64,000 bases of DNA from Bacteroidota bacterium. Lineage in GTDB: Bacteria; Bacteroidota; Ignavibacteria; UBA10030. The translations under genes and the position numbers were made by a program. The notes beneath the pieces are model-generated. The model was not told where the DNA came from. It made no database searches and was given only the letters and a program-made list of their open reading frames with translations. The stretch spans positions 111,144 to 175,143 of the forward strand of contig JALONQ010000004.1 of NCBI GenBank assembly GCA_025454835.1. Reading direction: 5' to 3'. Positions 4,951 to 31,688 of the stretch are shown piece by piece; positions within the stretch are counted from its first letter, which is position 1; each line of letters starts with the position of its first letter.

Positions 4951-5188
4951 CTGGGCGACTATGGAACGTGCAATGTCCATGCCATTTTGACCCGCCGAAT
5001 CCTCTGGAATTCGACAGAATTGATGCCTGCGAACATGCACTTTCCGATAATCGCGAGTGCAGTTATGGGAGAGGAGAAAGGAGACTGAAGAAAGGTGAGA
5101 GGTGAAAGGCAATAGAACGAGGGAGATCGATTCCCAAGAATGATGCTCCTTCGCCGAGGGCGGGGGCAATGTGAGACTGAGCCTTGGA

Positions 5189-5713
5189 TCAGGCCGAGGT
5201 TGTCGCTTCAGGCTCGGCCTTCAACTTCCCGCCGCGCACGGTGGCTCCAACGACCAGACCGGCGCTGATGAGGACCAAGTTCTTGATGATATACTGCCCC
5301 TCCAGCGTCGGAGCATACGGGAGGCGCGTGAAAGCATCAGCCGGGAACAGGACGAGCGGGGTCAGCGTGCCCAGCATCTGCAGGAAGAGAAGGAACAGAA
5401 TAGCGCGTAGGTAGACGCCGAAGATCAATCCGATGCCGATGACCGTCTCCCACGTCGCCAGCAGGTAGATCGAGACGCCGGGTGTGACGATGTCGAACGT
5501 CAGGAGCCTGATCGTCTCCGTCGCCAGTCCTTGGGCAGGACTGAGTCCCGGAAAGAACTTCAGAAAGCCGAACCAGAAGAACGTGATGCCCAGGCTGATG
5601 CGGAGAAGCACGATGCCGTAGCGGGCCATCCATTCTGTAATGGCGCGGTCGAGGCGGTCGAAGGATCGGTGGTGGCTTGACATGGGCCCGATGGTCGTTT
5701 GGTGGGTTCTCAC
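5189..5713 (-). CDS. small integral membrane protein (DoxX/DUF417-like)
   Basis: Three to four hydrophobic helices are visible (GIVLLRISLGITFFWFGFLKFF; IYLLATWETVIGIGLIFG; LFLLFLQMLGTLTPLVLF; LVLISAGLVVGA). It sits directly downstream of the homocysteine methyltransferase gene with a 5-nt gap. Family assignment is tentative. Confidence 0.45.
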   Translation of the reverse strand: MRTHQTTIGPMSSHHRSFDRLDRAITEWMARYGIVLLRISLGITFFWFGFLKFFPGLSPAQGLATETIRLLTFDIVTPGVSIYLLATWETVIGIGLIFGVYLRAILFLLFLQMLGTLTPLVLFPADAFTRLPYAPTLEGQYIIKNLVLISAGLVVGATVRGGKLKAEPEATTSA

Positions 5714-5717
5714 ATCA

Positions 5718-6653
5718 TCATGGCTGCAACCGTGCTGCGGCCGCCGCGATATGCTCCGGTTCCGCCCCGCAACAGCCTCCCAGCAACTTCACCCCCATCC
5801 CATGCAACTCCGCCAGGAACGCCCCGAAGCTCTCGGGCGATTCCGGATACACGGGACCGTTCGCTCCACCTCGCGGAATGCCAGCGTTTGGCTGGATCAG
5901 GACAGGGACCGATGAAGCGGCCACGAATTCTTTCGCCACCTGCCGCATCGTATCGAACCCCGACCCGCAGTTCGACCCGACGATCTGTGCCCCGGCGGCG
6001 ACCAACTCTCTGGCCGCTTTGGTTGGCGAGACGCCGAACGCCGTGCGCGGACCGTGGGGGGTCGGTTCAAAGGTCATCGTCGCCCCGACGATGTCGAATC
6101 CGATCGCGTGCGCGCATTCGAGGGCCAGCTGAGCTTCTTCGAGCGACATCATCGTTTCGATGAGCAGCACGCGCACTCCGGCTTCGCGCATCGTGCGATA
6201 CGGCTCGGTGAATGCCGCACGCGCGTCTTCCGCAGAAAGCTCGCCGTACGGCTCGATGAGCTCGCCCAACGGTCCGGCGGAGCCGGCAATGATCGCACGG
6301 TGCCCCGCCGCTTCCGTCGCCAACCGGACCGCCGCTCGGATGTTGTCCGATATCTTCCCTTTCACCTCCGCCGACTGGAACCTGCGCACATTCGCGCCAA
6401 ACGTGTTGGTCTCGATCACCAAGGAGCCGGCGGCCACGAACTCACTGTGGAGGGTCCGCACGTCGTCCGGTCGGCTCACGTTCCACCCCTCGGGCGCCGA
6501 ACCTGGTTCGAGGCCCCGATGTTGCAGGCACGCACCGAAGCCGCCGTCGAACAGGACGGGGCGGGTGGGGGCGAGAAGTGACGCGGGGGAGAGCATCAGG
6601 GAGATTCGATTGTCGTTCGTGGAATGTGGGTTTTCGATTGCCGAAGAGATCAA
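5718..6653 (-). CDS. homocysteine S-methyltransferase (Hcy-binding) domain protein (MetH N-terminal module / BHMT / MmuM family)
   Basis: It contains the S-methyl_trans domain motifs (PVLFDGGFGACL...LVIETNTFGAN, GSNCGSG, LLGGCCGAEPEHIAAAA), with the Zn-binding Cys in GCCG. The ATG at 6653 overlaps the corrinoid-gene stop as ATGA. An alternative start at 6596 (MLSPASL) is possible. Confidence 0.8.
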   Translation of the reverse strand: MISSAIENPHSTNDNRISLMLSPASLLAPTRPVLFDGGFGACLQHRGLEPGSAPEGWNVSRPDDVRTLHSEFVAAGSLVIETNTFGANVRRFQSAEVKGKISDNIRAAVRLATEAAGHRAIIAGSAGPLGELIEPYGELSAEDARAAFTEPYRTMREAGVRVLLIETMMSLEEAQLALECAHAIGFDIVGATMTFEPTPHGPRTAFGVSPTKAARELVAAGAQIVGSNCGSGFDTMRQVAKEFVAASSVPVLIQPNAGIPRGGANGPVYPESPESFGAFLAELHGMGVKLLGGCCGAEPEHIAAAAARLQP

Positions 6654-7285
6654 GATGAGCGGCCGGCGAGGAGTCGTTCCACCAGTTCCACCGCTTCCGC
6701 TGCGGTTCGAGCGCTCCCGGCGGCGCCGATCTCGGAGGCGAATGACGCGCTGACGGGGGCGCCTCCGACGATGACCGGCACCCGTTCTTCGGCCGTTCTC
6801 AGCGCGTCGATGACCGTCTTCATGTAGGTCATCGTCGTCGTCAGCAGGGCCGACAGGCCCACGACATCCGGCCGATGCTCTCGCACCGCCTGAAGAAACC
6901 TCTCGGCGTTGCAGCCTGTGCCGATGTCGATGACCTTGAATCCCGCCCCTCGGAGCATCACGCCGACCAGGTTCTTGCCGATGTCATGGACGTCTCCTTT
7001 CACCGTCCCCAGGAGAACGCTCCCTTTGGGTACGTATGAGGTGGCGGCCAGCAGGGGATCGAGGACCGCCATGGCGGATTTCATGGCGCGCGCCGCTACG
7101 AGCACTTCGGGCAGATAGATCTCCCCCTCGCGAAACCGCTTGCCGACAGCCTGCATGGCAGGGAGCAACCCGAGGTCGAGGACCTGCGTCGGCTTGGCGC
7201 CCGCCTGGACGGCCTTCCCGGTCAGCTCGGCGGTCGCAACATGGTCGCCCCGGATGAGGGCTTGCTGAAGGTCAGTGAAGTCCAT
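6650..7285 (-). CDS. corrinoid (cobalamin)-binding protein, MtaC/MetH B12-binding module type
   Basis: A B12-binding_2 cap (MDFTDLQQALIRGDHVATAELTGKAV) is followed by a Rossmann-like domain with the D-x-H-x-x-G motif (GDVHDIGKN) and GGAPVS. The start is set at the internal ATG (7285). The upstream ORF extension is Arg/Pro-rich. Confidence 0.8.
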   Translation of the reverse strand: MDFTDLQQALIRGDHVATAELTGKAVQAGAKPTQVLDLGLLPAMQAVGKRFREGEIYLPEVLVAARAMKSAMAVLDPLLAATSYVPKGSVLLGTVKGDVHDIGKNLVGVMLRGAGFKVIDIGTGCNAERFLQAVREHRPDVVGLSALLTTTMTYMKTVIDALRTAEERVPVIVGGAPVSASFASEIGAAGSARTAAEAVELVERLLAGRSS

Positions 7286-7487
7286 TGACTCTCTTGAGAA
7301 AAGCGGTGCACGAACCTGCCCGCCCCCGAGATCTCCATGAGGCAGGCGGGGTTCCACAAAGGGACGACGAAGTTGCACGAAGGAGTTGAATGAGGGTCAC
7401 GACCATTCTCTTCGTGGACAAGATCCTCATCAGGATTTGATCGTCGCTTTGCGCCGTTGTGGAGGGGCCTCCGGCTGTGTTCCGCTT

Positions 7488-8600
7488 TCAGCCCTGTTCT
7501 TCAACGATCTGACGGAGCATCATGATCCTCTCCGGCCTCACCGCCGGGGCGATCGAGCAGGCGGTTGACAAAATGAACCGTCCGTAGGCCTTGCCCAGCC
7601 GCAGCCGAGCCGCCGCGTCCTGCGCCACCAGATCATCGGTCCCTAGCAACAACGCATGCACCGAATCTACGTTCCCTTTGACGAACATCCGGCCTCCCAG
7701 AACTTCGAACGCTTCGGGCAGCTCAGCGGTCCCCAGCGGCGGCGGGTCGAGGCATTCCAGTCCGCGAGCACCCGAGCGCGCCATCAGGTCCAGCCGGTCG
7801 CTGATCGCCCCGCACGTGTGCAGATACGCCGGCTTCCCGCTCTGCTGGATCGCCTCGACCACCAGCCGCTCGTAGGGCAGAACGAACCGTTCGTAATGGC
7901 CGCGCGACAGGAATCCCGCGCCGGCGAAGGGCGACGAGACCTTGATGGCGTCGATGTCCTCGCACACCATTGCGGAGGCGATCTCGGCCACGCCGTCGGC
8001 GAAATTAGAGAGCCACGCTTCAGCGCGCTCCGGATCATCGATGAGGAGCATCAATGCGGCTTCGTGGCCGAGCGCATCCAGCAGATAGTCGAACGGAGAG
8101 GTCACCTCACCATGCACTGAGACGTCCGGACCTGCAAGCGAGCGGACTTGCCGAAATACATCGAACCGATGCGACGGATGGATATCGAAATGGAGGCCTT
8201 GGCTTACAGGAATATACGACAACGGCCGCGGGACCTGCTCGGGATCGCTTGAAGGGGGCGGCAGATCGGACAAGAGCTCCGGCAAGTCGTCAGGACGATA
8301 GAGCAGACGTCGACCGTCCTTCCATGTCGCCACCTCCCCTTCCGGGCTTTGCTCACGACGAACGAGAGCGTCCATCCAACGGGGCTCATGGCCATGCAGA
8401 CTGACGAGGATCCCGTCGAATCCGTAGCGGGCCCGAAGATCGACGAGACCGCGGGCGTAGACATCGACATCATGCCAGAAGTCGACAGGTGCCACAGGCA
8501 ACTGCCGAAGCATGTGCCCGATGCTCATCTGGCACATGAACGGAACGCGGTCATGATGCAAGCCATGCATCGCGGCGTGCAGGCGTTGGCGTGGAGTCAT
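7488..8600 (-). CDS. URO-D/MtaA-family methylcobamide methyltransferase
   Basis: It has uroporphyrinogen-decarboxylase-like TIM barrel features (MTPRQRLHAAMHGLHHDRVPFMCQMS...YLHTCGAIS...LECLDPPPLG). The start is taken at the internal Met at 8600. The upstream extension is a Cys/Leu low-complexity artefact. Confidence 0.7.
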   Translation of the reverse strand: MTPRQRLHAAMHGLHHDRVPFMCQMSIGHMLRQLPVAPVDFWHDVDVYARGLVDLRARYGFDGILVSLHGHEPRWMDALVRREQSPEGEVATWKDGRRLLYRPDDLPELLSDLPPPSSDPEQVPRPLSYIPVSQGLHFDIHPSHRFDVFRQVRSLAGPDVSVHGEVTSPFDYLLDALGHEAALMLLIDDPERAEAWLSNFADGVAEIASAMVCEDIDAIKVSSPFAGAGFLSRGHYERFVLPYERLVVEAIQQSGKPAYLHTCGAISDRLDLMARSGARGLECLDPPPLGTAELPEAFEVLGGRMFVKGNVDSVHALLLGTDDLVAQDAAARLRLGKAYGRFILSTACSIAPAVRPERIMMLRQIVEEQG

Positions 8601-8644
8601 GGCGCTTCTGGCAAGGAATGGACACAAAAGGCACAAAAAACAGC

Positions 8645-8692
8645 AGAAGCACAAGAGCTTTGTGACCTCTGTGCTTCCTCGTGGCAAGGGTC
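8645..8692 (-). terminator. hairpin plus U-tract between DHOD-like and MtaA-like genes (terminator or attenuator)
   Basis: The minus strand reads gaagcacagaggtcacaaagctcttgtgcttc tgctgttttttgtg, an imperfect 11-bp stem followed by T6. This lies about 45 nt upstream of the MtaA-like start and about 150 nt past the DHOD-like stop. Confidence 0.4.
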
Positions 8693-8835
8693 CATCCGTG
8701 AACCTCGCGTCAGAAAACAACGATCCGGAAGTTCTTCCAGAGCATTCTCTGGAATTCCTTCCGGATCTCTTGCCGAACTCATACGCTCCCTGACCTCGTC
8801 ACTCCCCTTTCTGCTCCATTGACCTTCGCTCGGAA

Positions 8836-9834
8836 CTACATCAGGAGTTTGTACCGATTGAGCGCTTTCATGTAGTTCGCGCGCTCGAACGCCGACGGGT
8901 CGTGGACTGACTTGTGGCTCATGCTTCCCTTCATCTGCTCGACCGACACGTACTCGTGCTCGAACATCCACTTCTCCAATCCCTCCAACACTTCCTTGAG
9001 ATGCTCGGGGCCGCGCTTCAGCAACGCGGAACACATCATGGTGACGTCGGCGCCGGCCATCAGGAGTTTGATCACGTCGTCCGAGGTATGGATGCCGCTC
9101 GTCGCCGCGAGGCTGGCCTTGATGCGGCTGTGAAGGATGGCGACCCAGCGCATCGGCAGCGTACTGGCCGACGAGTCGCTCAGATGGACATGCGGCGTCA
9201 CCTCGAGCTCGTTGATATTGATGTCGGGCTGATAGAACCGGTTGAAGAGAACGAGGCCATCCGCTCCGGCGTTGACGAGCCGCTGGGCCACATTGGCCAG
9301 CGCGGTGAAGTAGGGGCTCAGCTTGACCGCCACGGGGATCGCCACCGTGCTCTTGACCGCGTGAAGGACGTCGAGGTAGCGCGCTTCCACATCGTCGCCG
9401 GCCAGCGCCGGGTCGGTGGGAATGTAGTAGACGTTGAGCTCCAGAGCATCGGCTCCCGCCTCTTCCATGTGCTTCGCATACTTCACCCAGCCGCCGGTCG
9501 ACACGCCGTTCAGGCTCCCGATCACCGGGACCTCCAACGATTCGGAGGCCTTCCTCAGAAGCTCGAGATATTGGTCCGGCTCGAGGTTGTATTCCTTCGC
9601 TTCTGGGAAGTATGTGAGCGCCTCGGCGTAGGACTGCGTACCGTAGGACAGATAGTGGTCGATCTCGAACGATTCGTGTTCGATCTGTTCCTCGAACAAC
9701 GAGTACATGACGATCGCCGCCGCTCCGGCATCCTCCAGCCGTTTCATCGAATCGATGTTGCGTGAGAGAGGGCTGGCCGACGGGACGAGCGGGTTCTTAA
9801 GACGTTTTCCAAGGTAATACGTTGAGAGATCCAT
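8836..9834 (-). CDS. dihydroorotate dehydrogenase-like FMN-binding TIM-barrel flavoprotein
   Basis: It resembles the class-1 DHOD / PyrD-like fold (VIGSLNGVSTGGWVKYAKHMEEAGADALELNV...AIPVAVKLSPYFT...GADGLVLFNRF...LAATSGIHTSDDVIKLLMAGADVTMMCSALL). Confidence 0.7.
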   Translation of the reverse strand: MDLSTYYLGKRLKNPLVPSASPLSRNIDSMKRLEDAGAAAIVMYSLFEEQIEHESFEIDHYLSYGTQSYAEALTYFPEAKEYNLEPDQYLELLRKASESLEVPVIGSLNGVSTGGWVKYAKHMEEAGADALELNVYYIPTDPALAGDDVEARYLDVLHAVKSTVAIPVAVKLSPYFTALANVAQRLVNAGADGLVLFNRFYQPDININELEVTPHVHLSDSSASTLPMRWVAILHSRIKASLAATSGIHTSDDVIKLLMAGADVTMMCSALLKRGPEHLKEVLEGLEKWMFEHEYVSVEQMKGSMSHKSVHDPSAFERANYMKALNRYKLLM

Positions 9835-9954
9835 GGTATTCCTGTGTGGTCCTTGGTGCGTACTCTGTGGAGAGTATGCAGTAAGCAGGTACTCTCAGGC
9901 CTGTGCCATGTGGAAATCAGTGTTAACAGATCAGAGATCTTTGACACATGGTTT

Positions 9955-9999
9955 CAACCTGCCTATACCCTGCCCGAACCTGCCTACTGCCTACTTCTC
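9955..9999. repeat. short GTAGGCAG-type motif immediately 3' of the nifJ stop, shared with 57934-57980
   Basis: cctgcctataccctgcccgaacctgcctactgcctactt here matches cctgcccacaacctgatcgtacctgcctactgcctactt at 57.9 kb. The 20-nt core is 19/20 identical. Each copy sits 4-9 nt after the stop of a minus-strand gene. Confidence 0.5.
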
Positions 10000-10007
10000 A
10001 ATGTTAT

Positions 10008-13000
10008 CTACTGCTTCTCCTCGACCTTCTCCGGTGCCGCTGTTCCTCCGTCGTGCGCATACTGCTCGTAGAGCGCCCATCGTTCCTTCACATCGGCCTG
10101 CGCCTGCGCGCCGAGTTCCTTTGCCCTGTCGGGATGGCTCTTCTCGAGCATTCGGAACCGTGTCTCGAGCGAGGTGAACTCCTTGAGTGACTTCGACGGG
10201 GCCTTCGAATCGAGCTTGAAGGGGTTCTTTCCTTCGTGCGCCAGGAGCGGGTTGTACCGGAACAACTGCCAGTAGCCCGTTTCGACAGCCACCTTCTGAT
10301 TGGTCATGCCACGGGCCATGTCGATGCCGTGAGCGATGCAGTGGCTGTACGCGATGATGATCGACGGTCCGTCGTACGCCTCGGCCTCGAGGAAGGCGCG
10401 GATGGTCTGGGCGTCATTCGAGCCCATGGCCACCTTCGCCACGTAGACGTTGCCGTACGACATGGCGATCATGGCCAGGTCCTTCTTGCTCGTCGGCTTG
10501 CCCGACGCGGCGAACTTGGCAACCGCCGACCGCGGCGTGGCCTTTGACATTTGGCCGCCGGTGTTGGAATAGACCTCGGTGTCGAGCACGAGGATATTGA
10601 CGTTGCGGCCAGAGGCAAGGACGTGGTCGAGACCGCCGAAGCCGATATCGTACGCCCATCCGTCGCCGCCCATGATCCAGATGCTCTTCTTGACAAGATA
10701 GTCGGCCAGGCTCAGCAGTCGCTTCGCCTCGGCTTCCTGCATGCCTGCGAGCTTCTTCTTGAGCACGTCGACCCGTTCGCGTTGCTCGTGGATGCCCGCC
10801 TCGTCGCTCTGTTTCGCTCCGAGGATGGCCATCGTCAGATCCTGACCGATGGCACCGGCCAGATGCCGGACGAGCTCCTGCGCCATTTCGAGGTTCTTGT
10901 CGATCGTCAGACGAATGCCCAAGCCGAACTCGGCGTTGTCTTCGAACAGCGAATTGGCCCACGCGGGTCCGCGCCCTTCGTTGTTGGCTGTCCACGGCGT
11001 GGTTGGAAGGTTGCCGCCGTAGATCGACGAACAGCCGGTGGCGTTCGCCACGATCATCCGGTCGCCGAACAACTGCGAGGCGAGCTTGACGTACGGCGTT
11101 TCGCCGCAGCCGGAGCAGGCGCCCGAGTACTCGAACAACGGCTGGAAGAACTGCGTCCCTTTGACCGTGTCGGTGCGAACCGTGCGGCGGTCCACTTCCG
11201 GCAGGTTCAGGAAGAAATCATAGTTGAGCCGCTCGGGCAGGCGCAGGGGTTCCTGCGGCTTCATGTTGATGGCCTTCACCTTCACTTCGCGCTTGCTCTT
11301 GGCCGGGCAGACCTCGACACAGAGGTTACAGCCTGTGCAATCTTCCGGCGCCGTCTGCACGGTGTACTTGAGGCCCTTGTATTCGACCCCTTTGTACTCC
11401 ATCGACTTGAAGGTCTCGGGCGCATTGGCCAAGGCCGCGCCGTCGTACACCTTCACGCGGATGGCGGCATGCGGACACACGAGAGCGCACTTGTTGCACT
11501 GGATGCAGATGTCCGGCTCCCAGACGGGGATCTCGAGGGCGATGTTCCGCTTCTCCCACTGTGTCGTGCCCACGGGATATGTGCCATCCTCGGGCAGCAG
11601 GCTGACGGGCATGGTGTCTCCCTTGCCCGCGATGATGGGGGCCGTCGTCCTCTGGACGAACGCCGGGGCCTGCGGCGACACCACGGGGGGCAGTTCGATC
11701 GTGCTCGAGACCTTGTCGGGCACCTTCACCGCGAACAGATTCGCCAGGGTCTGGTCGACCGCCTCGTAGTTCTTCTGGACGACGTGCTCGCCCTTCTTGC
11801 CGTAGGTCTTCTTGATGGAGTTCTTGATGGCCGCGATCGCCTCGTCCTTCGGCAGGACACCGGAGATGGCGAAGAAGCAGGTTTGCATGATCGTGTTGAT
11901 ACGACCGCCCATTCCGGTGGCTGTCGCGACCTTGTACGCATCGATCACGTAGAGCTGGATCTTCTTTTCGAGGATCGTCTCCTGCGTCACGCGGGGAAGA
12001 TGATTCCACACGACGTCAGGGCCGTACAGGCTGTTCAGGAGGAACACGCTCCCGGGGGCCGCCGCCTCGAGGACGTTGTACTTCTCGAGGAAGAACCACT
12101 GGTGACACGCGATGAAGTTGGCGCGATCGATCAGATAGGGCGTCTTCAGCTGCTTCGGACCGAACCGCAAGTGCGACGTGGTGGTCGAGCCCGATTTCTT
12201 CGAGTCGTAGACAAAATAGCCCTGCGCGTAGAACGGCGTCTCTTCGCCGATGATCTTGATCGAATTCTTGTTCGCCCCGACGGTACCGTCGGCGCCAAGC
12301 CCGAAGAAGAGGGCCCGCTTCACCTCTTCGCCTTCGACCGAGAACGTGGGATCGTAGACGAGCGATGTATGCGTCACGTCGTCGTTGATGCCGACCGTGA
12401 ACCCATTCTTCGGCGAGGGCTTCTTCAACTCATCGAAGACGGCCTTCACCATCGCCGGCGTGAACTCCTTCGATGAAAGGCCATAGCGACCTCCCACCAC
12501 CCTTGGCATCGAGGCAAACGGGAGCGTTCCGTTCTGCTGGGCGGTGCCCAGGGACGTTATGACATCCATATAGAGCGGTTCGCCCGCAGCGCCCGGCTCC
12601 TTGCAGCGGTCGAGAACGCCGATCGTCTTGACCGACTTCGGCAAGGCCGCCAGGAAGTGCTCAAGCGAGAACGGACGATAGAGCCGGACCTTCAGGACGC
12701 CGACCTTCTCCCCCTTGTTGGCAAGATACTCGACGGTGTCATGCACCGTCTCGGCACCGGAACCCATGACGATGACGACCCGCTCTGCGTCGGGGGCGCC
12801 CACATACTCGAAGAGCTCATAGCGACGTCCGGTCACGGTCTCGAACTTTTGCATCGCCTTCTCGACGATGCCGGGGCAGGCCGTGTAGTACGTGTTGCAG
12901 CGTTCACGCGACTGGAAGAAGACGTCGGGATTCTGCGCCGTACCACGGATCACCGGATTGTCGGGCGTCAGGGCGCGCTTGCGATGCGCGAGGATCATGT

Positions 13001-13628
13001 CGTCGTCGACCATCGCCCGGAGCTGCTCGTCGCTCAGCTCTTGGATCTTCATGACTTCGTGCGACGTCCGGAATCCGTCGAAGAAGTGCAGAAAGGGGAG
13101 GCGCGACTCGAGCGTCGCGGCCTGCGCGATGCACGCGAAGTCCATCACTTCCTGAACAGAACAGGACGACAGCATGCCCCAACCGGTCGAGCGGGTCGAC
13201 ATGACGTCGGAATGATCGCCGAAGATCGACAAGGCATGCGTGGCGACGGTGCGGGCCGCGATGTGGAAGACGGTCGGCGTGAGTTCGCCGGCGATCTTGA
13301 ACATGTTCGGGATCATCAGGAGCAGTCCCTGCGATGCCGTGAAGGTGGTGGCCAGCGATCCGGCCTGGAGTGCGCCGTGGATCGCCCCTGCCGCTCCGCC
13401 TTCGCTTTGCATCTCAATAACGAGCGGTACGGTCCCCCAGATGTTCTGCTTTCCGTTCGCCGACCATTCGTCGGCCCATTCACCCATGTTCGAGGAAGGG
13501 GTGATCGGATAGATGGCGATGACTTCGTTCAGTTTGTGGGCGACGTACGCAGCCGCCTCGTTGCCGTCGATCATGACTGGGGTTGCCGCCGACGGACGCG
13601 GACCCTCTTGATTGCTTGACATGGTCAT
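10008..13628 (-). CDS. nifJ: pyruvate:ferredoxin (flavodoxin) oxidoreductase, single-polypeptide type
   Basis: The 1206-aa product has the PFOR domain order I-VI. It carries two ferredoxin-type Cys clusters (CIQCNKCALVCPHAAI; CTGCNLCVEVCP) and the C-terminal TPP-binding domain (GGDGWAYDIGFGGLDHV). Confidence 0.95.
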   Translation of the reverse strand: MTMSSNQEGPRPSAATPVMIDGNEAAAYVAHKLNEVIAIYPITPSSNMGEWADEWSANGKQNIWGTVPLVIEMQSEGGAAGAIHGALQAGSLATTFTASQGLLLMIPNMFKIAGELTPTVFHIAARTVATHALSIFGDHSDVMSTRSTGWGMLSSCSVQEVMDFACIAQAATLESRLPFLHFFDGFRTSHEVMKIQELSDEQLRAMVDDDMILAHRKRALTPDNPVIRGTAQNPDVFFQSRERCNTYYTACPGIVEKAMQKFETVTGRRYELFEYVGAPDAERVVIVMGSGAETVHDTVEYLANKGEKVGVLKVRLYRPFSLEHFLAALPKSVKTIGVLDRCKEPGAAGEPLYMDVITSLGTAQQNGTLPFASMPRVVGGRYGLSSKEFTPAMVKAVFDELKKPSPKNGFTVGINDDVTHTSLVYDPTFSVEGEEVKRALFFGLGADGTVGANKNSIKIIGEETPFYAQGYFVYDSKKSGSTTTSHLRFGPKQLKTPYLIDRANFIACHQWFFLEKYNVLEAAAPGSVFLLNSLYGPDVVWNHLPRVTQETILEKKIQLYVIDAYKVATATGMGGRINTIMQTCFFAISGVLPKDEAIAAIKNSIKKTYGKKGEHVVQKNYEAVDQTLANLFAVKVPDKVSSTIELPPVVSPQAPAFVQRTTAPIIAGKGDTMPVSLLPEDGTYPVGTTQWEKRNIALEIPVWEPDICIQCNKCALVCPHAAIRVKVYDGAALANAPETFKSMEYKGVEYKGLKYTVQTAPEDCTGCNLCVEVCPAKSKREVKVKAINMKPQEPLRLPERLNYDFFLNLPEVDRRTVRTDTVKGTQFFQPLFEYSGACSGCGETPYVKLASQLFGDRMIVANATGCSSIYGGNLPTTPWTANNEGRGPAWANSLFEDNAEFGLGIRLTIDKNLEMAQELVRHLAGAIGQDLTMAILGAKQSDEAGIHEQRERVDVLKKKLAGMQEAEAKRLLSLADYLVKKSIWIMGGDGWAYDIGFGGLDHVLASGRNVNILVLDTEVYSNTGGQMSKATPRSAVAKFAASGKPTSKKDLAMIAMSYGNVYVAKVAMGSNDAQTIRAFLEAEAYDGPSIIIAYSHCIAHGIDMARGMTNQKVAVETGYWQLFRYNPLLAHEGKNPFKLDSKAPSKSLKEFTSLETRFRMLEKSHPDRAKELGAQAQADVKERWALYEQYAHDGGTAAPEKVEEKQ

Positions 13629-13846: not shown

Positions 13847-14794
13847 TCAATTCACCGCAAACCCTGCTTCCGGGAGCGCATAGTAACGGTTCCCCTCGAA
13901 CTCGACGATCCGGAGGCGACCGGAAGCGACAAGAGCATCCAGGGCCGAGGCAACCGTAGCCGAATCAACCCCCAGGCCGGCGGCGACATCGACCGCTGAC
14001 ATCGGTCGACGCGCTACGACGTCAAGCATCTCCTGGTCGCTCGGCAAGTGCGCCGGAGCGCATGAGCGCTCACGGGTCGGGCTGATGATCTCCGCACGAG
14101 GCCCGAGCATCGTCCGGATCTGCTCGAGGCGTTCGTGCGACACAGGGTGTGCCCATGGTTCTGCGGGCGGTCGCACGACCGTGTTGATCTGCACCTTGTC
14201 CGGCGCAATGCGATCGATGGCCTGCCGGAGCAGCCAGACCTCTTCATCGTGGTCGTTCATCCCCAGCACGAACAAGACCTCCAGCCACATCTTGCCTTGG
14301 AATTGCCGTCGGAACTCAACGAGACCTTCGATCACCTGGACAGCCGTCAGACGCGGGTGCGGACGGTCGATCCGGCGGAAGACATCCTCGGAGACCGCGT
14401 CGAGCGACGGACAGACGATATCGGCGGTGGTCAGGTCCTTGCGCACATCCTCTTTCCAGAGCAGCGTGCCATTCGTCAGCACGACGAGCGGCGCCGAGGT
14501 CATCTGGCGCGCGGCGCGCAGCAGGTCGCCAAGTCCGGCGTGCAGCGTCGGCTCGCCGGACCCCGAGAACGTGACACAGTCGACACCCGGATGGGCGGCG
14601 AGGGCGGCGCGCAGCTCCTTCAGAATGATGTCGGTGGGGATGTACTCACGGCGGGCCAATCCGCGCTTGTCGGTGCGGCCCACTTCGCAGTAGACGCAAT
14701 CCAGCGTACACAGCTTGCGGGGGATGACGTCGACGCCGAGCGAACGCCCGAAGCGTCGAGAGGGGACGGGACCAAAGACGGTTCGCACGCTCAC
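13847..14794 (-). CDS. radical SAM enzyme with C-terminal winged-helix/HTH domain
   Basis: It has the CxxxCxxC motif (CTLDCVYCEVG), a glycine-rich SAM motif (TFSGSGEPTL) and a C-terminal helix-turn-helix-like region (MSAVDVAAGLGVDSATVASALDALVASGRLRI). The proposed GTG start at 14794 overlaps the stop of the upstream small ORF (ATGTGA). The longer ORF start at 14851 is Arg/Ala/Pro-rich. Confidence 0.7.
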   Translation of the reverse strand: MSVRTVFGPVPSRRFGRSLGVDVIPRKLCTLDCVYCEVGRTDKRGLARREYIPTDIILKELRAALAAHPGVDCVTFSGSGEPTLHAGLGDLLRAARQMTSAPLVVLTNGTLLWKEDVRKDLTTADIVCPSLDAVSEDVFRRIDRPHPRLTAVQVIEGLVEFRRQFQGKMWLEVLFVLGMNDHDEEVWLLRQAIDRIAPDKVQINTVVRPPAEPWAHPVSHERLEQIRTMLGPRAEIISPTRERSCAPAHLPSDQEMLDVVARRPMSAVDVAAGLGVDSATVASALDALVASGRLRIVEFEGNRYYALPEAGFAVN

Positions 14795-15054
14795 ATCCAG
14801 AACTCGATCTCTGCGGGGGGCTGCTCTTCGCGATGCTCGCGGCGCTGGCACGACTGCACGAACGCTTCGATGCCTTCAACGCGGGCCTGAAGGTCGCCGA
14901 TGAGCTCATTCAACCGCATCACGCGAGCGTCGCCATGACGTCCGGCATCGAGCATGCCGATCTCTTTGCGAAGCTCCGTGACACGGCTCAGCGAGACCTC
15001 GAGGTCATGCACGACGGCCTCGATGCTCCGGTCCACACGGGTCTGTACCACCAT
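14791..15054 (-). CDS. small hypothetical coiled-coil protein (87 aa)
   Basis: The composition is protein-like and not GC-artefact-like (VDRSIEAVVHDLEVSLSRVTELRKEIGMLD...LNELIGDLQARVEGIEAFVQ). Its stop overlaps the radical-SAM GTG start. Confidence 0.35.
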   Translation of the reverse strand: MVVQTRVDRSIEAVVHDLEVSLSRVTELRKEIGMLDAGRHGDARVMRLNELIGDLQARVEGIEAFVQSCQRREHREEQPPAEIEFWM

Positions 15055-15225
15055 GGTGTGTCCTCCGTGAACAGGACGTCAACCATCGTCGGGCGGGCCA
15101 TCAACGCGCCAACCGCCAATGGCACCGCGACGATCGAACAAGGGCGCCTTCGCCGCCAGAGGACGCGCCGTCGCGTTGCGTGCGACAGCCTCAGAGGTCC
15201 TTCTGGCCGGCTTCGGACGACCCTC

Positions 15226-15549
15226 TCAGGCCGGACGGGCCTGAAGGTCCTTCAGATGCTCAACGATGGCGGGCAGCACCCGGTCGAAGGCACATTCGAG
15301 TCGATTCGCCCGCCAGCAGGTACCGTCGGCATCGCGGGTACCGCAGACACGGCACACCTCCTCACGCACATGCTCCCGCTGGTCGGGCAGTCCATCGAAG
15401 GCCACGACCGCATGGTGGGCGACCGCCAGGTGATCGCGCAGAGCGCAGGATTCATCGACCGGCAAATGACACCGGCCATGTGGGTCGCCGTCGATGCAGG
15501 TCGTGCAGACCTGCCGTTGCATCTCGTGCCACAGTTGTTCCATGACCAC
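15226..15549 (-). CDS. small cysteine-rich (probable metal-binding) protein
   Basis: At least nine Cys occur in CxxC/CxC spacings (CTTCIDGDPHGRCH...ESCALRDH...CRVCGTRDADGTCWRANRLEC). It ends 12 nt before the CoA-transferase gene. It resembles YgbA-type Cys-rich proteins, but the family is uncertain. Confidence 0.4.
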   Translation of the reverse strand: MVMEQLWHEMQRQVCTTCIDGDPHGRCHLPVDESCALRDHLAVAHHAVVAFDGLPDQREHVREEVCRVCGTRDADGTCWRANRLECAFDRVLPAIVEHLKDLQARPA

Positions 15550-15561
15550 CTCCGTTGGAGG

Positions 15562-16875
15562 TCAGGCCATCGCCCCTGCCTTCTGGTTGCTTCCCCTTCT
15601 CAACGCTCGTTCCAGCTCGGCCTGATGCGACGGGTGCGCTATTGCCAAGAGAGCGTCGGCGCGCTGGCGAAGATTCCTGCCGTGCAAAGCCGCGATGCCG
15701 AACTCCGTAACGACGTAGTGGACATCCGCTCGGCTTGTGACGACCCCGGCCCCCGGCGCAAGCAGGGCGACGATGCGCGAGATCTTGCCGTCCTTGGTGG
15801 TCGAAGGGAGGGCGATGATCGGCTTCCCTCCTTTCGAATACGACGCACCGCGAATGAAGTCCACCTGACCGCCGAAACCGCTGTAGATCTTCGGGCCGAT
15901 CGAATCGGAGCACACCTGGCCCGTGATATCGACCTCGATGGCCGAATTGATGGCCACCTGGTTATCGTTCTGCGCGATGACGAACGGGTTGTTGGTATAG
16001 TTGCAGGGATGGAGCTCGAACAACGGGTTGTTGTCCACGTAGCCGTACAGCTCGTTCGACCCGAGGATGAAGGTGGCGATCACCTTGCCGCGATGGATCG
16101 ACTTCTTCGCGTTCGTCACGATCCCTTTTTCGATCGCTTCGACGACGCCGTCGGAGACCATTTCGGTATGGATCCCGAGATGCTGACGTCCGTCGAGCAG
16201 TTTGAGCACAGCGTCGGGAATGCCGCCGATGCCGAGCTGCATTGTGGCGCCATCCTCGATGAGCGTGGCGATATGGCCCGCGATGCGCATCTCCAGGTCG
16301 GAGGCCGGCTTCGGCACGAGGGTCATGAGCGGCTCGGAGCACTCCACGATCTTCTGGACGCGGGATACGTGGATGAAATCGTCTCCGAGCGTGCGCGGCA
16401 TGCGCTCGTTGACCTGGGCCACGACGATCCTCGCGCTCTCGGCGGCCGACTTCGTTGCTGCGCACTCCACGCCGTAGCTCATGAACCCATGCTCATCCGG
16501 GGGCGAGACATGAATAAAGGCGACGTCGAGCGGAATGACATGCTCGGTGAAGAGGGCCGGTATGTCGGACAGGTGCACGGGCACGTATTCCGACCGGCCG
16601 TCGGCGATCGCCTCGCGGTCGGCGGGGCCGACAAAGAGCGAGTTATGACGGAAGCTCGCCTCCATGCCCGGCTTGGCCAGCGGATCCTCACCGAGCAGGA
16701 GCACGTGGTTCACTTCGACGCTGCGCAGTTCGGCTGCGCGTCGGGCGAGGGCGTGGGTCAGCAAGAGCGGTGTGGCCGCGTTGCCAGAGATGAAGATGCG
16801 GTCGCCCGATTTGACCGTCGTCACGGCCTCATCGGGTGACACCACCTTGACCATGTAATGGGGAAGCCAGTTCAC
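15562..16875 (-). CDS. acetyl-CoA hydrolase/transferase family protein (4-hydroxybutyrate/succinyl-CoA:acetate CoA-transferase-like)
   Basis: It contains AcetylCoA_hydro N- and C-terminal domains (SGDRIFISGNAATP...VVAQVNERMPRTLGD...ITGQVCSDSIGPKIYSGFGGQVDFIRGA). Confidence 0.85.
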   Translation of the reverse strand: MNWLPHYMVKVVSPDEAVTTVKSGDRIFISGNAATPLLLTHALARRAAELRSVEVNHVLLLGEDPLAKPGMEASFRHNSLFVGPADREAIADGRSEYVPVHLSDIPALFTEHVIPLDVAFIHVSPPDEHGFMSYGVECAATKSAAESARIVVAQVNERMPRTLGDDFIHVSRVQKIVECSEPLMTLVPKPASDLEMRIAGHIATLIEDGATMQLGIGGIPDAVLKLLDGRQHLGIHTEMVSDGVVEAIEKGIVTNAKKSIHRGKVIATFILGSNELYGYVDNNPLFELHPCNYTNNPFVIAQNDNQVAINSAIEVDITGQVCSDSIGPKIYSGFGGQVDFIRGASYSKGGKPIIALPSTTKDGKISRIVALLAPGAGVVTSRADVHYVVTEFGIAALHGRNLRQRADALLAIAHPSHQAELERALRRGSNQKAGAMA

Positions 16876-22310: not shown

Positions 22311-23489
22311 ATGGACGACTCCTCCTCCCTCTTCCCTCACGACCTGCCGGACCAGTTCGGCGCGCGCTTCGGACGTCCGCCCGAAGTGATCGCATCGGCC
22401 CCGGGACGCGTGAACCTCATCGGCGAGCACACCGACTACAATGAGGGTTTCGTGTTGCCCGTTGCCATCGACCGCCGCACCTGGGTGGCCATGGCCGCTC
22501 GGGAGGACGGCCGTCTCCATTTTCGATCAGAGACGACGAACGAGGATGTCGAGATCGGGCTCCAGGATGCTGACCATCATCGCCGCAAAGGGTGGTCGTC
22601 TTATCCTGCCGGGATCGTCGCGCTCCTTCGCCAGCAGGGCGTGCCGGTCGGAGGCATGGACGTGCTCATCTCGAGCACCGTCCCGCTCGGCACCGGGCTC
22701 AGTTCGTCGGCGGCCTTGGAGGTCTCGATGGCAACTGGGACGCTTGCGCTCGCCGGGAGTTCCCTGCCGTCGCAGGAACTCGTCCGCCTCTGCCAGCGGG
22801 CAGAGTGGGACTGGGCCGGCGTGCAGTGCGGCATCATGGACCAAACGATCGCCGTCTCGGGAAAATCGCGCGCGGCGCTCTTGATCGATTGCCGCACACT
22901 CGACACCGAGACCGTGCCGCTCGATCCAAGCCTTCAGCTTGTCGTCTGCGACACGGGCATGCCCCGGACGCTGGCGACGTCCGAGTACAACAAACGCCGG
23001 GGTGAATGCGACCAAGCCGTGCGCGAGCTCGGGCGCCATGCAGCCGGGCTGACGTCGCTCCGGGACGTGACGCAGGAGCAGCTCTCGTTATTCGGCCGTC
23101 ACCTCTCCGAGACCCCCCTTCGCCGCGCACGACACGTGGTCACGGAGAACGAGCGTGTCCTGCAAGCCGTCGACGCGCTCTGGCTGCGTGATCACCGTTC
23201 GCTCGGAAAGCTGCTGGGGGCTTCGCATGCCAGTCTGAGAGATGACTACCAGGTGAGCTGCGCTGAACTCGACGTCATGGTCGCCATCTGCCAATCGGTG
23301 CCGGGCGTGTGTGGCGCCCGCATGACCGGAGCCGGGTTCGGCGGTTGCGCGTTGGCTCTCGCCACGCCCGGTGCGGTCGGCGCATTGACAGAGGCCGTCA
23401 TGAGCCGGTATCCGCAACACACCGGCCGCACACCGTCGGTCGTCACCTGCACGGTGGGCGACGGGACCCGTGCGGTACGCGTCGGATGA
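22311..23489 (+). CDS. galK: galactokinase
   Basis: The galactokinase signature GRVNLIGEHTDYNEG and the GHMP kinase ATP motif (PLGTGLSSSAALEV) are present. Confidence 0.9.
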   Translation: MDDSSSLFPHDLPDQFGARFGRPPEVIASAPGRVNLIGEHTDYNEGFVLPVAIDRRTWVAMAAREDGRLHFRSETTNEDVEIGLQDADHHRRKGWSSYPAGIVALLRQQGVPVGGMDVLISSTVPLGTGLSSSAALEVSMATGTLALAGSSLPSQELVRLCQRAEWDWAGVQCGIMDQTIAVSGKSRAALLIDCRTLDTETVPLDPSLQLVVCDTGMPRTLATSEYNKRRGECDQAVRELGRHAAGLTSLRDVTQEQLSLFGRHLSETPLRRARHVVTENERVLQAVDALWLRDHRSLGKLLGASHASLRDDYQVSCAELDVMVAICQSVPGVCGARMTGAGFGGCALALATPGAVGALTEAVMSRYPQHTGRTPSVVTCTVGDGTRAVRVG

Positions 23490-23514
23490 CGGCCCCGAAC
23501 TTACTTTTCTCGCA

Positions 23515-25779
23515 ATGAAGTTCCTCGCCCATCTCATCATCGGCACGCTTGCCGCCGCTGCTGCCGCGGCTCAGCCCGTGACGCTCCGGCTGGTGAACTG
23601 GGCCACGCCGGAGGAGATGGATCTGGACCGGAAGGCCATTGTGCTTTTCGAGGAACGCCATTCTGGCATTCGGGTCCTTTACGAACCGAACCCCGGACGG
23701 CAATACGAAGAGAAGATCCTCACCGCGCTGGCCGCCGGAGCGCCTCCCGACGTCTTTCTGCTCGATTCGAAGCTCATCCCAACCTTCACGAACAAAAGGG
23801 TCCTGCTCGACCTGACGCCGTACATCGGTCCACTCGGCATCGACACGACGCAGTGGTTTCCGAATGTCCTCGCGATCGGCCGACGCAACGGCGGGCTCTA
23901 CGCGTTTCCGAAGGGTTTCACGCCGCTCATGATGTTCTACAACCGCGCGCTCTTCCGGGAAGCGGGGATCGCGGAGCCGACACCATCGTGGACATGGGGA
24001 GATCATCGCCGGATCGCCGCGTCGCTCACCCGTGATCGCGACGGCGACGGAACGCCCGACCAATACGGCACGTCGTTCACGAACTACTACTACTTCTGGA
24101 TCGTCTGGGTCTGGAGCGCGGGGGGCGATGTTGTGACCGAGGACGGACTGCGTGCGACCGGTGCGCTGACGTCGGCGGCGACGGAGGAGGCGATCACATT
24201 CCTTACGGACCAGCGGACGCGCGACCGGGTGGCGCCCGACGTCGGCAGTTGGGTGCAGTCGGAGCGGACCGGCACGAATGCACAGCTCTTCGCCAACGGC
24301 CGTGTGGCGATGAGTCTGGATGGTCATTGGCGGTTGCCGACCTACGCGCGATATGTGCGCGAGGGGAAGCTCGACCTGGGCGTTGCACCGTTGCCGCTGC
24401 ATCCGAGCGGCCGGAAGGTGAACGTCATGTACCAGAGCGGATGGTGCGTACCTGTCGGCGCGTCGCATCCGCGTGAGGCGGCGATGCTTGCGGCGTTCAT
24501 GGCCGGGCCGGAGGCGGCGCGGATCCGCTCGTCACAGCATCTGGAGATCCCGGCCGTGCGGTCCGTTGCGGAGGAGATCGTCGCAATCGACCCATACGGC
24601 TGGGAGCGCCCGTTCGTGGAGGAAGTGCCGTTCTGCCGTCAGCCATGGGGTTCGGTCATCGAGCGGTTCAGCGAGATCGAGTGGACGCTGCAGGACGCGG
24701 TCGACGACGTCGTCTTGAACGGCGTGCCGGTCAACCAAGCGCTCGCGAAGGCGGCGCTCAAAGTGGACCGGCAGTTGGAGGAGATCAGGTCGCACGCGGC
24801 GTTCACGTTTGCGCCCATCGAAGAGCATTCGGAGATCTTACAGACGCTGGCGGCCGTGGCGGCGGCGGTGGCGGGGGCAATGTTCCTTCTCTATAGAAGA
24901 GCGCGGCGCAGGGACCGGCCGGCGGCCTTGCGGTCCATCGGATTTCTGGCGCCTTCGCTCATTCATCTGACCGTCTTCCTCGCCACGCCGATGGTCTTCT
25001 CGGCGTATCTCAGCCTCCACCGCTGGGACCTCGTCGTACCCGACACGCCGTTCGTCGGGCTCGAGAACTTCGTCGTGATGTTCGGCGACGAGAGCTTCTG
25101 GAATGCTCTGCGGAACACGCTTCTGTTCTCTCTGAACGTTCCATTCGGTCTGGCGTTGGCCCTGGGCGTCGCTTTGTTGTTGCATCGGCGCTTCACCGGC
25201 GTGGCGGTCCTCCGGACCATCTACTTCCTTCCGAGCGTCACGTCGTTCGTGGCCATTGCCCTCGTGTGGATGTGGATCTACCATCCGACCTTTGGCGCGG
25301 CCAACTATCTCCTGTCGCTCCTCGGCCTGCCGCCGATTCCCTGGCTCAACTCCACGCAGACGGCGATGCTGAGCGTCGTCATCTTTACGATCTGGCTGGG
25401 GATGGGCTACCAGATGGTGGTCTTCCTGGCGGGACTGCAGGGCATTCCCGAGGAGTACTACGAAGCGGCCCGCATGGACGGAGCCACGGCGTGGCAGCGG
25501 TTCCGGCGCGTGACGTTTCCGTTGCTGATGCCGACGACGTTCTTCCTGCTCATCACCTCGCTCATCTCGTCGTTCCAGGCCTTCACGTCGATCTACGTCA
25601 TGACGGCCGGCGGGCCCGTGGGAAGCACCGACGTGATCGTCTACCATATCTACCAAGCGGCGTGGGAGCAACTGCGGATGGGGTACGCGTCGGCGATGGC
25701 GTGGGTGTTGTTCGTGCTGATCCTGGCGGCGACCTGGGTGCAGTTCCGGTTGGTGGGGAGGGGTGTGGAGTACTCTTAG
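23515..25779 (+). CDS. carbohydrate ABC transporter substrate-binding protein fused to permease (MalE/UgpB-like + MalF/UgpA-like)
   Basis: The N-terminal ~430 aa is a periplasmic sugar-binding domain with a signal peptide (MKFLAHLIIGTLAAAAAAAQ). The C-terminal ~300 aa is a six-TM permease with the EAA loop (EAARMDGATAWQRFRRVTFPLL). The whole is one continuous frame. The ORF-track start at 23470 uses GTG; 23515 is the ATG. Confidence 0.8.
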   Translation: MKFLAHLIIGTLAAAAAAAQPVTLRLVNWATPEEMDLDRKAIVLFEERHSGIRVLYEPNPGRQYEEKILTALAAGAPPDVFLLDSKLIPTFTNKRVLLDLTPYIGPLGIDTTQWFPNVLAIGRRNGGLYAFPKGFTPLMMFYNRALFREAGIAEPTPSWTWGDHRRIAASLTRDRDGDGTPDQYGTSFTNYYYFWIVWVWSAGGDVVTEDGLRATGALTSAATEEAITFLTDQRTRDRVAPDVGSWVQSERTGTNAQLFANGRVAMSLDGHWRLPTYARYVREGKLDLGVAPLPLHPSGRKVNVMYQSGWCVPVGASHPREAAMLAAFMAGPEAARIRSSQHLEIPAVRSVAEEIVAIDPYGWERPFVEEVPFCRQPWGSVIERFSEIEWTLQDAVDDVVLNGVPVNQALAKAALKVDRQLEEIRSHAAFTFAPIEEHSEILQTLAAVAAAVAGAMFLLYRRARRRDRPAALRSIGFLAPSLIHLTVFLATPMVFSAYLSLHRWDLVVPDTPFVGLENFVVMFGDESFWNALRNTLLFSLNVPFGLALALGVALLLHRRFTGVAVLRTIYFLPSVTSFVAIALVWMWIYHPTFGAANYLLSLLGLPPIPWLNSTQTAMLSVVIFTIWLGMGYQMVVFLAGLQGIPEEYYEAARMDGATAWQRFRRVTFPLLMPTTFFLLITSLISSFQAFTSIYVMTAGGPVGSTDVIVYHIYQAAWEQLRMGYASAMAWVLFVLILAATWVQFRLVGRGVEYS

Positions 25780-25907: not shown

Positions 25908-26288
25908 ATGACAACGCAACGAGATCCGCTGACCCATTCGATTATTGGTTGCGCAATCGAGGTGCATCGCGTGCTCGGACCTGGCCTGTTGGAATCGGCA
26001 TACGAAGCGTGCCTGATTCATGAGCTCACTCGGCAAGGCCTACCAGTTGACCGTCAGGTATCGGTGCCAGTTGAATTCAAGGGCATGGTGCTCGACTGCG
26101 GCTAGCGCTTGGACGTGCTTGTGGATGACTCCGTCATCATCGAGATCAAAGCGATCGATTTACTGCTTCCAGTGCACACGGCCCAACTGCTCACATATAT
26201 GCGCTTCGCCAAAAAGCGCGTCGGACTCCTGCTCAATTTCAACGCACCGTCCCTCCGCCAAGGGCTCAAAAGGTTCGTCATGTAACTC
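25908..26288 (+). pseudogene. GxxExxY-family (PD-(D/E)xK-like) gene interrupted by an in-frame TAG at 26103-26105
   Basis: The ORF reads MTTQRDPLTHSIIGCAIEVHRVLGPGLLESAYEACLIHELTRQGLPVDRQVSVPVEFKGMVLDCG*. The same frame then continues as [46 protein letters not shown].... The TAG sits where the family has a conserved Tyr (..DCGYRLDLLV..), consistent with TAY to TAG. TAG is used as a real stop elsewhere, for example at the end of the SBP-permease gene. Confidence 0.6.
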
Positions 26289-26335: not shown

Positions 26336-26357
26336 TTCGTCGACCTGGAGAACCTAC

Positions 26358-31661: not shown

Positions 31662-31688
31662 AGCCGCTTTCTTTTTCACTTCAACTTC

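Follow-up and report, generated by a model that had tools for sequence, protein, structure and literature searches.

A conserved trio of URO-D, corrinoid, and Hcy-domain genes in Ignavibacteria and Bacteroidota: a candidate folate-module-free relay to methionine

A stretch of 64,000 nucleotides from a member of the Ignavibacteria (Bacteroidota bacterium, lineage UBA10030; contig JALONQ010000004.1, positions 111,144 to 175,143), hereafter called the window, carries on its minus strand three neighbouring genes that encode a zinc methyltransferase of the URO-D/MtaA type, a stand-alone corrinoid (B12-binding) protein, and a stand-alone homocysteine-binding (Hcy) domain like that of methionine synthase (MetH). 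This trio is a real unit, inherited together, and we see an even chance that it works as a corrinoid relay free of any folate module, in which the URO-D enzyme would transfer the methyl group of a thioether or selenoether to Co(I), the Hcy domain would make methionine, and an unlinked activase would repair Co(II). A first-pass annotation of the window had described four co-directional genes, the additional one encoding a dihydroorotate dehydrogenase (DHOD)-like flavoprotein. All four open reading frames (ORFs) are present on the minus strand at 5718–9834, and Pfam agrees with the domains assigned to them (DHO_dh, URO-D, B12-binding, and S-methyl_trans). Only part of that proposed unit stands, however: the URO-D, corrinoid, and Hcy genes are co-conserved, but the DHOD-like gene is not.

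Among metagenome-assembled genomes (MAGs) of Ignavibacteria and Bacteroidota, the three genes stand in the sequence URO-D, corrinoid, Hcy in no fewer than eight distinct genomic contexts (loci L083/L089/L096, L084, L085/L086, L087/L088, L104, L105, L132, and L175), and the stop and start codons of adjoining trio genes frequently overlap in these relatives. Searching from the Hcy protein led to the trios in L084 (79% identity), L083 (62%), L085/L086 (50%), L087/L088 (48%), and L175 (46%); an independent search from the URO-D protein led to those in L089/L096, L104, L105, and L132, as well as to a contig, L091, that ends after the corrinoid gene. L084 retains the flanking genes seen in the window, namely a radical SAM protein, pyruvate:ferredoxin oxidoreductase (PFOR), and the DHOD-like protein; L085/L086, L087/L088, and L175, by contrast, have wholly different flanking genes and possess neither the DHOD-like nor the PFOR gene. 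Conservation in at least eight contexts rules out chance adjacency of the three genes. In neighbour-joining trees with 50 bootstrap replicates, built for the corrinoid and the Hcy proteins, the trio corrinoid proteins are monophyletic in all 50 replicates, and the trio Hcy proteins cluster in 29 of the 50. Both clades lie apart from the MttB-linked pairs described below and from fused short and full-length MetH, and recent fission of a MetH gene was rejected as the origin of the trio on these grounds.

The Hcy protein matches the S-methyl_trans profile (PF02574) over positions 2–282 of 283, with 188.7 bits against a Pfam cut-off of 22, and in NCBIfam it resembles the Hcy domains of YitJ, BHMT, and MetH. 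Its nearest relative in the PDB is the Hcy domain of Thermotoga maritima MetH (1Q7M; 1e-35), with BHMT and MmuM behind, and in the alignment its residues C210, C275, and C276 correspond to Cys207, Cys272, and Cys273, the zinc ligands in that enzyme. The three cysteines are invariant in 34 Hcy homologues, in which D17, G18, and G21 of an N-terminal D-G-x-x-G motif, together with E147, are invariant or nearly so. To our knowledge, all characterised PF02574 enzymes methylate homocysteine, and the protein is proposed, from its sequence, to be a methylcorrinoid:homocysteine methyltransferase.

The corrinoid protein belongs to the stand-alone class of approximately 210 aa (His-on, base-off) that consists of a four-helix cap and a Rossmann B12 domain. 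It matches B12-binding_2 (PF02607; 72.8 bits) and B12-binding (PF02310; 103.8 bits), both above the Pfam cut-off, and its DxHxxG motif reads GDVHDIGKN; the cap and motif noticed in the first-pass annotation are thus borne out. The best PDB match is 1Y80, a Moorella cobalamin-binding protein (2e-53), and the score for TIGR02370, the family of methyltransferase-cognate corrinoid proteins, lies just under its cut-off (180.3 versus 215.3 bits). The protein is proposed to serve as the methyl carrier.

The third protein, which NCBI labels 'hypothetical protein' at the same length of 370 aa (MCU0452952.1), scores 110.6 bits against the Pfam URO-D profile, of which only the C-terminal two thirds are covered. 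Its best PDB match by sequence is MtaA of Methanosarcina mazei (4AY7; 1.4e-10), with the H-x-C...C residues aligned; the corresponding H261, C263, and C348, which align with the HxC and the distal Cys of MtaA, are invariant in 37 orthologues. An AlphaFold2 model (pLDDT 91.3; pTM 0.92) has as its top Foldseek matches the MtaA structures 4AY8 and 4AY7 (E ~1e-17; TM 0.75–0.81), followed by true UroDs, and MetE is also among the matches. Uroporphyrinogen decarboxylase (HemE) was considered as an identity and rejected, the TIGR01464 score being 29 bits against a cut-off of 303 and HemE being without the zinc triad. In this superfamily, a His-Cys-Cys zinc sphere is the mark of S- and Se-methyltransferases, O-demethylases having replaced the cysteines (PMC10418091). 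We treat the enzyme as probably representing a divergent sister subfamily of the MtaA/CmuA type. It is a small subfamily, with 64 representatives out of 1.84 billion at E<=1e-30, and its orthologues are common in Ignavibacteria and Bacteroidota MAGs at 46%–77% identity.

What the Hcy domain does in such settings can be read from related cassettes. A scan of a genome collection with the Hcy alignment gave 80 loci from many phyla, and in 17 of them a stand-alone corrinoid gene lies directly upstream of a stand-alone Hcy gene. Twelve of the 17 pairs are preceded by a gene for an MttB-superfamily methyltransferase; these are accompanied by a MetH-activation-like (PF02965) protein of ~237 aa or by a RACo activase, and a pterin-binding gene is found near only one of the 17. 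The MttB superfamily comprises donor-side demethylases only, and in the MttB-linked cassettes the acceptor role hence falls to the Hcy domain. Homology would extend this role to the window, where the URO-D enzyme would therefore be the one that loads the corrinoid protein.

Two kinds of cluster stand out among these loci. In L002, L005, L007, L016, L019, L023, L026, L035, L059, and L061 (e.g., L005:3223-7131), a tightly coupled four-gene operon runs from the MttB-superfamily gene through the ~237-aa PF02965-like and corrinoid genes to the stand-alone Hcy gene, with no pterin gene; its hosts are Acidobacteriota, Planctomycetota, Gemmatimonadota, Ignavibacteria, and one Gammaproteobacteria MAG, and the operon may encode a corrinoid-dependent quaternary-amine (betaine):homocysteine methyltransferase. 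In L006:9944-15619, L008, L042:9220-16994, L054:7526-14382, and L020:7384-11837, the Hcy gene is clustered with genes for one or two corrinoid proteins, one to three other URO-D enzymes, these also with His-Cys-Cys, RACo, and DUF1638; the hosts are Chloroflexota (Dehalococcoidia, Thermoflexales, and Anaerolineales) and one deltaproteobacterial (Desulfobacterota) MAG. In Phaeobacter inhibens, RACo and DUF1638 act as accessory factors to a split MetH (PMC5764234). More tentatively, a stand-alone Hcy domain and the corrinoid protein dedicated to it might together form a general terminal acceptor cassette for swappable donor methyltransferases (MttB and several URO-D subfamilies), the Ignavibacteria/Bacteroidota version of which would be a folate-independent methionine synthase that harvests methyl groups from methyl-S/Se compounds. 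Such a synthase would be a case of the corrinoid-dependent anaerobic methyl salvage that has been hypothesised, though never demonstrated, for the mlp clusters (PMC10418091).

In the relay that we favour, the His-Cys-Cys zinc of the URO-D enzyme would bind the soft heteroatom of a small donor, whose methyl group would pass to the corrinoid protein (211 aa) in its Co(I) form; the likeliest donors would be methyl thioethers or selenoethers, such as methanethiol, dimethylsulfide, methylmercaptopropionate, a methylthio compound derived from 5′-methylthioadenosine (MTA), or methylselenides. The Hcy domain, with its Cys3 zinc, would then transfer the methyl group from methyl-Co(III) to homocysteine, thereby forming methionine and regenerating Co(I), and a gene located beyond the window would have to supply the reductive reactivation of Co(II). 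The sequences show the domains, catalytic motifs, and fold, and that the three genes are conserved together and co-evolve; which way the methyl group flows, what class of donor it comes from, and the need for an unlinked activase are what we infer here. The first-pass annotation had likewise suggested a route from a methylated compound via the corrinoid to homocysteine, and this is still the best reading; the trio is co-conserved, which that annotation had set as a check, and no folate module lies nearby. Its description of the cluster as a pairing of two acceptor-type enzymes was misleading, however, since URO-D-family enzymes also act as donor-side demethylases, as in MtsA, CmuA, and methyltransferase I (MT I) of the O-demethylases.

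The settings of the URO-D orthologues were classed by their neighbours at 48 loci with enough flanking sequence. A corrinoid gene is adjacent in 12 of them (five trios, one locus cut after the corrinoid gene, and six with a corrinoid protein plus a second MtaA-like enzyme), and this adjacency in a quarter of the loci supports corrinoid dependence of the enzyme. Several points, however, weigh against the proposed relay. The remaining 36 of the 48 orthologues are solo, with neither a corrinoid nor an Hcy gene within 2–6 kb, so the URO-D enzyme is not obligately tied to the Hcy/corrinoid module. Where an orthologue shares its locus with a corrinoid gene and another MtaA-like enzyme, its role as donor-side or acceptor-side enzyme becomes symmetric. 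The profile of the MtaA/CmuA family itself (TIGR01463, mtaA_cmuA) gives 93.6 bits, below its cut-off of 235.4, and again matches only in its C-terminal two thirds. No activase gene is present in the trio locus. Finally, methyl exchange from thiol to thiol is near-isoenergetic, and the direction of methyl flow cannot thus be read from sequence.

Several of these URO-D loci merit description in their own right. In L160, L166, and L167 (e.g., L166:2420-7137), a corrinoid gene is followed by an MtaA-like/thioredoxin-like fusion (the thioredoxin-like domain being of the HUIPC/MJ0307 type), a CobW GTPase, a PF02965-like protein, and the URO-D orthologue. In L164:2365-5881 and L156:3732-6545, the URO-D orthologue comes first, followed by the corrinoid gene, in part by a PF02965-like gene, and by the second MtaA-like enzyme. 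Both arrangements resemble mlp clusters, yet they lie on Bacteroidota-type metagenome contigs. In L176:6001-7902, an Hcy gene of the trio clade is followed after 3 nt by a gene for a 337-aa URO-D protein, with no corrinoid gene; this pair sits among sugar-metabolism genes, and two further URO-D paralogues are close by. The neighbours of the solo orthologues gave no functional clue beyond clade-specific synteny (saccharopine dehydrogenase-like, GH127, FGGY kinase, and HypD genes).

Flow in the reverse direction, with the Hcy domain demethylating methionine or another S-methyl compound onto the corrinoid protein and the URO-D enzyme methylating a thiol or selenol, is unlikely. The acceptor would in that case be sulfide, selenide, or a low-molecular-weight thiol, and the purpose would be detoxification or synthesis of methylthio compounds. 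Such a role would suit the closest likeness of the URO-D protein, which is to MtaA, a methylcobalamin:thiol enzyme of the acceptor side; MtaA in methanogens is encoded apart from the corrinoid genes, as most URO-D orthologues are, and the second MtaA-like enzyme beside the corrinoid gene in L160, L164, and L166 could represent the donor side. It would, however, be hard to reconcile with the homologous Hcy domains of the MttB-linked clusters, which make sense only as acceptors, with the activity of PF02574 enzymes wherever these have been characterised, or with homocysteine-binding residues and a zinc site of the MetH type. Distinctly unlikely is a non-orthologous split MetH, in which the URO-D enzyme would replace the pterin module and take its methyl group from 5-methyl-tetrahydrofolate, making the trio a housekeeping methionine synthase. 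A pterin-binding gene is missing from the window and from every trio locus; the URO-D family, at 46%–77% identity in so many MAGs of these groups, looks housekeeping-like; and MetE, a distant member of the same superfamily by Foldseek, does bind methyl-folate (PMC539065). The His-Cys-Cys zinc site predicts an S or Se ligand rather than N5 of folate, though, and the known methyl-folate:corrinoid methyltransferases are zinc-free TIM barrels of a different kind (PF00809). Most URO-D orthologues, moreover, are unlinked to Hcy or corrinoid genes, and a pterin-binding protein may simply be encoded elsewhere, as in P. inhibens (PMC5764234).

A donor other than sulfur or selenium, namely a methoxylated aromatic or a halomethane that an MT I resembling those of the O-demethylases or CmuA would demethylate, with the methyl group still going to homocysteine, is quite improbable. 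URO-D-family MT I enzymes do exist among the O-demethylases and in CmuA (PMC10418091), and the architecture of MT I, corrinoid protein, and MT II would be the same; the O-demethylase MT I enzymes, however, exchange one or both zinc cysteines for carboxylates or non-ligands, whereas His-Cys-Cys is invariant here, and typical O-demethylase operons, unlike the trio, have an adjoining RACE activase. Least probable by far, to the point of being hardly credible, is a four-gene unit in which the reductive reactivation of Co(II) would fall to the DHOD-like flavoprotein, as the first-pass annotation had suggested. A reductant is required, no known activase is encoded close by, and the DHOD-like gene does adjoin the trio, in the same direction, both in the window and in L083, L084, L089, and L096, the loci most closely related to it. 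It is, however, absent beside the trio in L085, L087, L105, L132, and L175, that is, in most trio loci, and it follows PFOR at a distance of 14–178 nt in unrelated contexts, in L169/L170 (Kryptonia), L171/L172, and L173/L174; the genes downstream of it in L169, L171, and L173 are unrelated (glycosidase, histidine kinase, and Rrf2) and include no methyltransferase. Its homologues are 71%–91% identical across more than 120 clusters, far more conserved than the trio proteins at 46%–79%. Between it and the URO-D gene lies a gap of 235 nt that contains a terminator-like hairpin, and related Hcy/corrinoid clusters have RACo, DUF1638, or MetH-activation-like proteins instead.

The DHOD-like gene thus belongs with PFOR, whose constant partner it is, and lies upstream of the trio in this clade by happenstance. 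The protein scores 57 bits against Pfam DHO_dh and 489.6 bits, against a cut-off of 303, over the full length of NF005741 ('dihydroorotate dehydrogenase-like protein'); it is not a PyrD and may be an electron-transfer partner of PFOR/ferredoxin. The pairing of PFOR with the DHOD-like gene is strongly conserved in Ignavibacteria, Bacteroidota, and Kryptonia (window 8836-13628, minus strand; L169, L171, L173, L084, and L089), and PFOR is also flanked by a DHOD-like gene in propionibacteria (PMC7650540). Directly upstream of PFOR, the window encodes a radical SAM protein whose C-terminal region is winged-helix-like (13847-14851, minus strand), and the synteny of radical SAM, PFOR, and DHOD-like genes is kept in L084, L089, and L096.

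Table 1. Features of the trio locus and its upstream neighbours in the window.
Feature	Position	Strand	Basis
URO-D/MtaA-like zinc methyltransferase, 370 aa, ATG start	7488-8600	minus	Pfam, MtaA fold, zinc motif
Stand-alone corrinoid (B12-binding) protein, 211 aa	6650-7285	minus	Pfam, DxHxxG
Stand-alone MetH-type Hcy domain, 292 aa, ATG start at 6596	5718-6596	minus	Pfam, zinc cysteines
DHOD-like flavin mononucleotide (FMN) protein, NF005741 family, neighbour outside the methyltransferase module	8836-9834	minus	NF005741 score, synteny
PFOR, 1206 aa	10008-13628	minus	Gene pair with DHOD-like
Terminator-like hairpin and T-rich tail, between DHOD-like and URO-D genes	8724-8741	minus	Hairpin scan

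The genes of the locus (Table 1) are less closely spaced than the tight packing first reported. PFOR and the DHOD-like gene lie 173 nt apart, the DHOD-like and URO-D genes 235 nt, and the URO-D and corrinoid genes 202 nt; a spacer of 53 nt precedes the Hcy gene when the latter starts at its ATG. The ATGA start/stop overlap reported at 6650–6653 does not exist as such: the coding strand reads TTGA, and the genes overlap only if the Hcy gene uses a TTG start at 6653, which would give a protein of 311 aa. This start is unlikely, and the ATG is likelier; it corresponds to the NCBI call of 292 aa (MCU0452950.1) and fits the conserved N-terminus. The ORF of the URO-D gene can similarly be extended to a TTG at 8720, its ATG giving 370 aa, and for the URO-D, corrinoid, and Hcy genes alike, the starts that fit the conserved N-termini are those called by NCBI (MCU0452950-MCU0452953). 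The hairpin upstream of the URO-D gene is a possible transcript boundary, although the two terminator-like sites in the region do not exceed the 2.8 expected by chance. Beginning 4 nt past the Hcy gene, a DoxX-family membrane protein is encoded at 5189-5713 (minus strand); it is kept only in the closest relatives, L081 and L084, with other genes in its place in L083, L085, L087, and L175, and it probably lies outside the module.

The first-pass annotation had remarked on the absence of a pterin module, an AdoMet reactivation domain, and a RamA-type activase, and this holds for the whole window: phmmer probes, with Pfam searches of 20 further ORFs, found no gene for a pterin-binding, MetH-activation, RACo/RamA, MttB, or CobW protein in the 64 kb. 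No ORF of the window and no trio locus contains a match to the pterin region of MetH (PF00809). RACo is likewise absent from the window and the trio loci, and the window has a single URO-D gene, which sets the locus apart from a type 1 mlp cluster. An MttB donor (PF06253), absent from the window, is present in other loci with a corrinoid gene upstream of an Hcy gene. Rfam detected no cobalamin, S-adenosylmethionine (SAM), or other riboswitch, either in the whole window at gathering thresholds or in positions 5000–10100 at E<=1, and a scan for sigma-70 promoters, which is not informative for promoters of the Bacteroidota type, gave no match.

Elsewhere in the window, tRNA-Val (anticodon TAC; 47833-47908, minus strand) is the sole match by Rfam or ARAGORN. 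A 769-aa ORF at 23470-25779 (plus strand) combines SBP_bac_1 and BPD_transp_1 and is either an unusual fusion or two genes in one frame. Three paralogous MGH1-like/GH116-like glycoside hydrolases (850, 760, and 1112 aa) stand in a row with an amino-acid permease at 28653-39294 (plus strand), and a GH31 enzyme with a type 9 secretion system (T9SS) sorting tail is encoded at 47917-50745. Four ORFs of 406–668 aa are without a Pfam match at E<=1e-5 (26160-27515, 45588-46910, and 56944-58164 on the minus strand; 14833-16839 on the plus strand); the last of these overlaps an ORF of 437 aa on the opposite strand and may be spurious.

The first-pass annotation had held the architecture to be undescribed. 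Full-text literature searches found no description of the trio, in keeping with that claim, but the concept has close relatives in split MetH, MtgBCDE, and the mlp clusters. The trio shares their logic and lacks their defining features, which are PF00809 in split MetH, MttB in MtgBCDE, and a second Mlp and RACE in mlp. A relay from one methyltransferase through a corrinoid protein to another, with zinc-thiolate chemistry on a URO-D fold, is also known from MtaABC and MtsAB of Methanosarcina, and MtsA illustrates that the fold is able to demethylate thioethers onto a corrinoid. The acceptor in those systems is coenzyme M, in the service of methanogenesis, whereas the trio is found in a bacterium and its acceptor is a MetH-type Hcy barrel.

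In the split MetH of P. inhibens (Price et al. 2018; PMC5764234), methionine is made by separate PF02574 Hcy and PF02607–PF02310 corrinoid proteins like those of the trio, and the two systems have in common a reactivation factor outside MetH. The third component there, however, is a PF00809 pterin protein that uses methyl-folate, whereas in the trio it is the URO-D/MtaA-like zinc enzyme, and the window has no PF00809, RamA-like, or DUF1638 gene. MtgBCDE of Ruegeria pomeroyi (PNAS 2025; PMC12478193) likewise places one corrinoid protein between a substrate demethylase and a stand-alone Hcy protein (MtgE), with the same modular logic of an exchangeable donor methyltransferase. Its donor enzyme, which acts on glycine betaine, is of the MttB family and its pterin protein MtgD is essential, whereas the donor enzyme proposed for the trio is of the URO-D type, with no pterin protein nearby; the MtgBCDE genes are dispersed and their hosts are aerobic Alphaproteobacteria, whereas the trio genes lie in one cluster.

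Type 1 mlp clusters (Kountz & Balskus; PMC10418091) and the dimethylselenide genes of Methanococcus voltae share with the trio an MtaA-like URO-D enzyme with His-Cys-Cys, a corrinoid protein, and non-methylotrophic hosts. They have been proposed to demethylate methyl-S/Se compounds, with the methyl group eventually entering methionine, as is proposed here. The mlp clusters require two or more Mlps (Mlp2 and Mlp3) together with a Ram/RACE activase, and they are without an Hcy domain. In the trio, by contrast, there is only one URO-D enzyme, which is more divergent (TIGR01463, 93.6 bits); an activase is missing, and an Hcy domain of the MetH type provides an explicit terminal acceptor. An analogous function is served by MesA, MesB, and MesC (Price et al. 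2021; PMC7857596), which convert homocysteine to methionine by taking the methyl group directly from a methyl-corrinoid protein instead of methyl-folate. The Mes enzymes, however, have MetE-type (PF01717) catalytic domains and are predicted to use MtrA or the corrinoid iron–sulfur protein (CoFeSP), whereas the trio combines a MetH-type (PF02574) catalyst with a dedicated small corrinoid protein and a loader enzyme of its own.

If the proposed relay is correct, some widespread anaerobic Bacteroidota and Ignavibacteria would be able to charge the methyl group of methionine from environmental or endogenous methyl-S/Se compounds, without recourse to the folate pool. Predictions of methionine auxotrophy from genomes would then change, and the cycling of volatile sulfur and selenium compounds would be tied to amino-acid synthesis. 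The trio offers a simple three-protein system for the proposal that MtaA-like enzymes of non-methanogens recycle methyl-S/Se compounds into methionine, and the variety of loader enzymes that accompany corrinoid and Hcy pairs in six or more phyla provides a genome-mining handle for new methyl donors.

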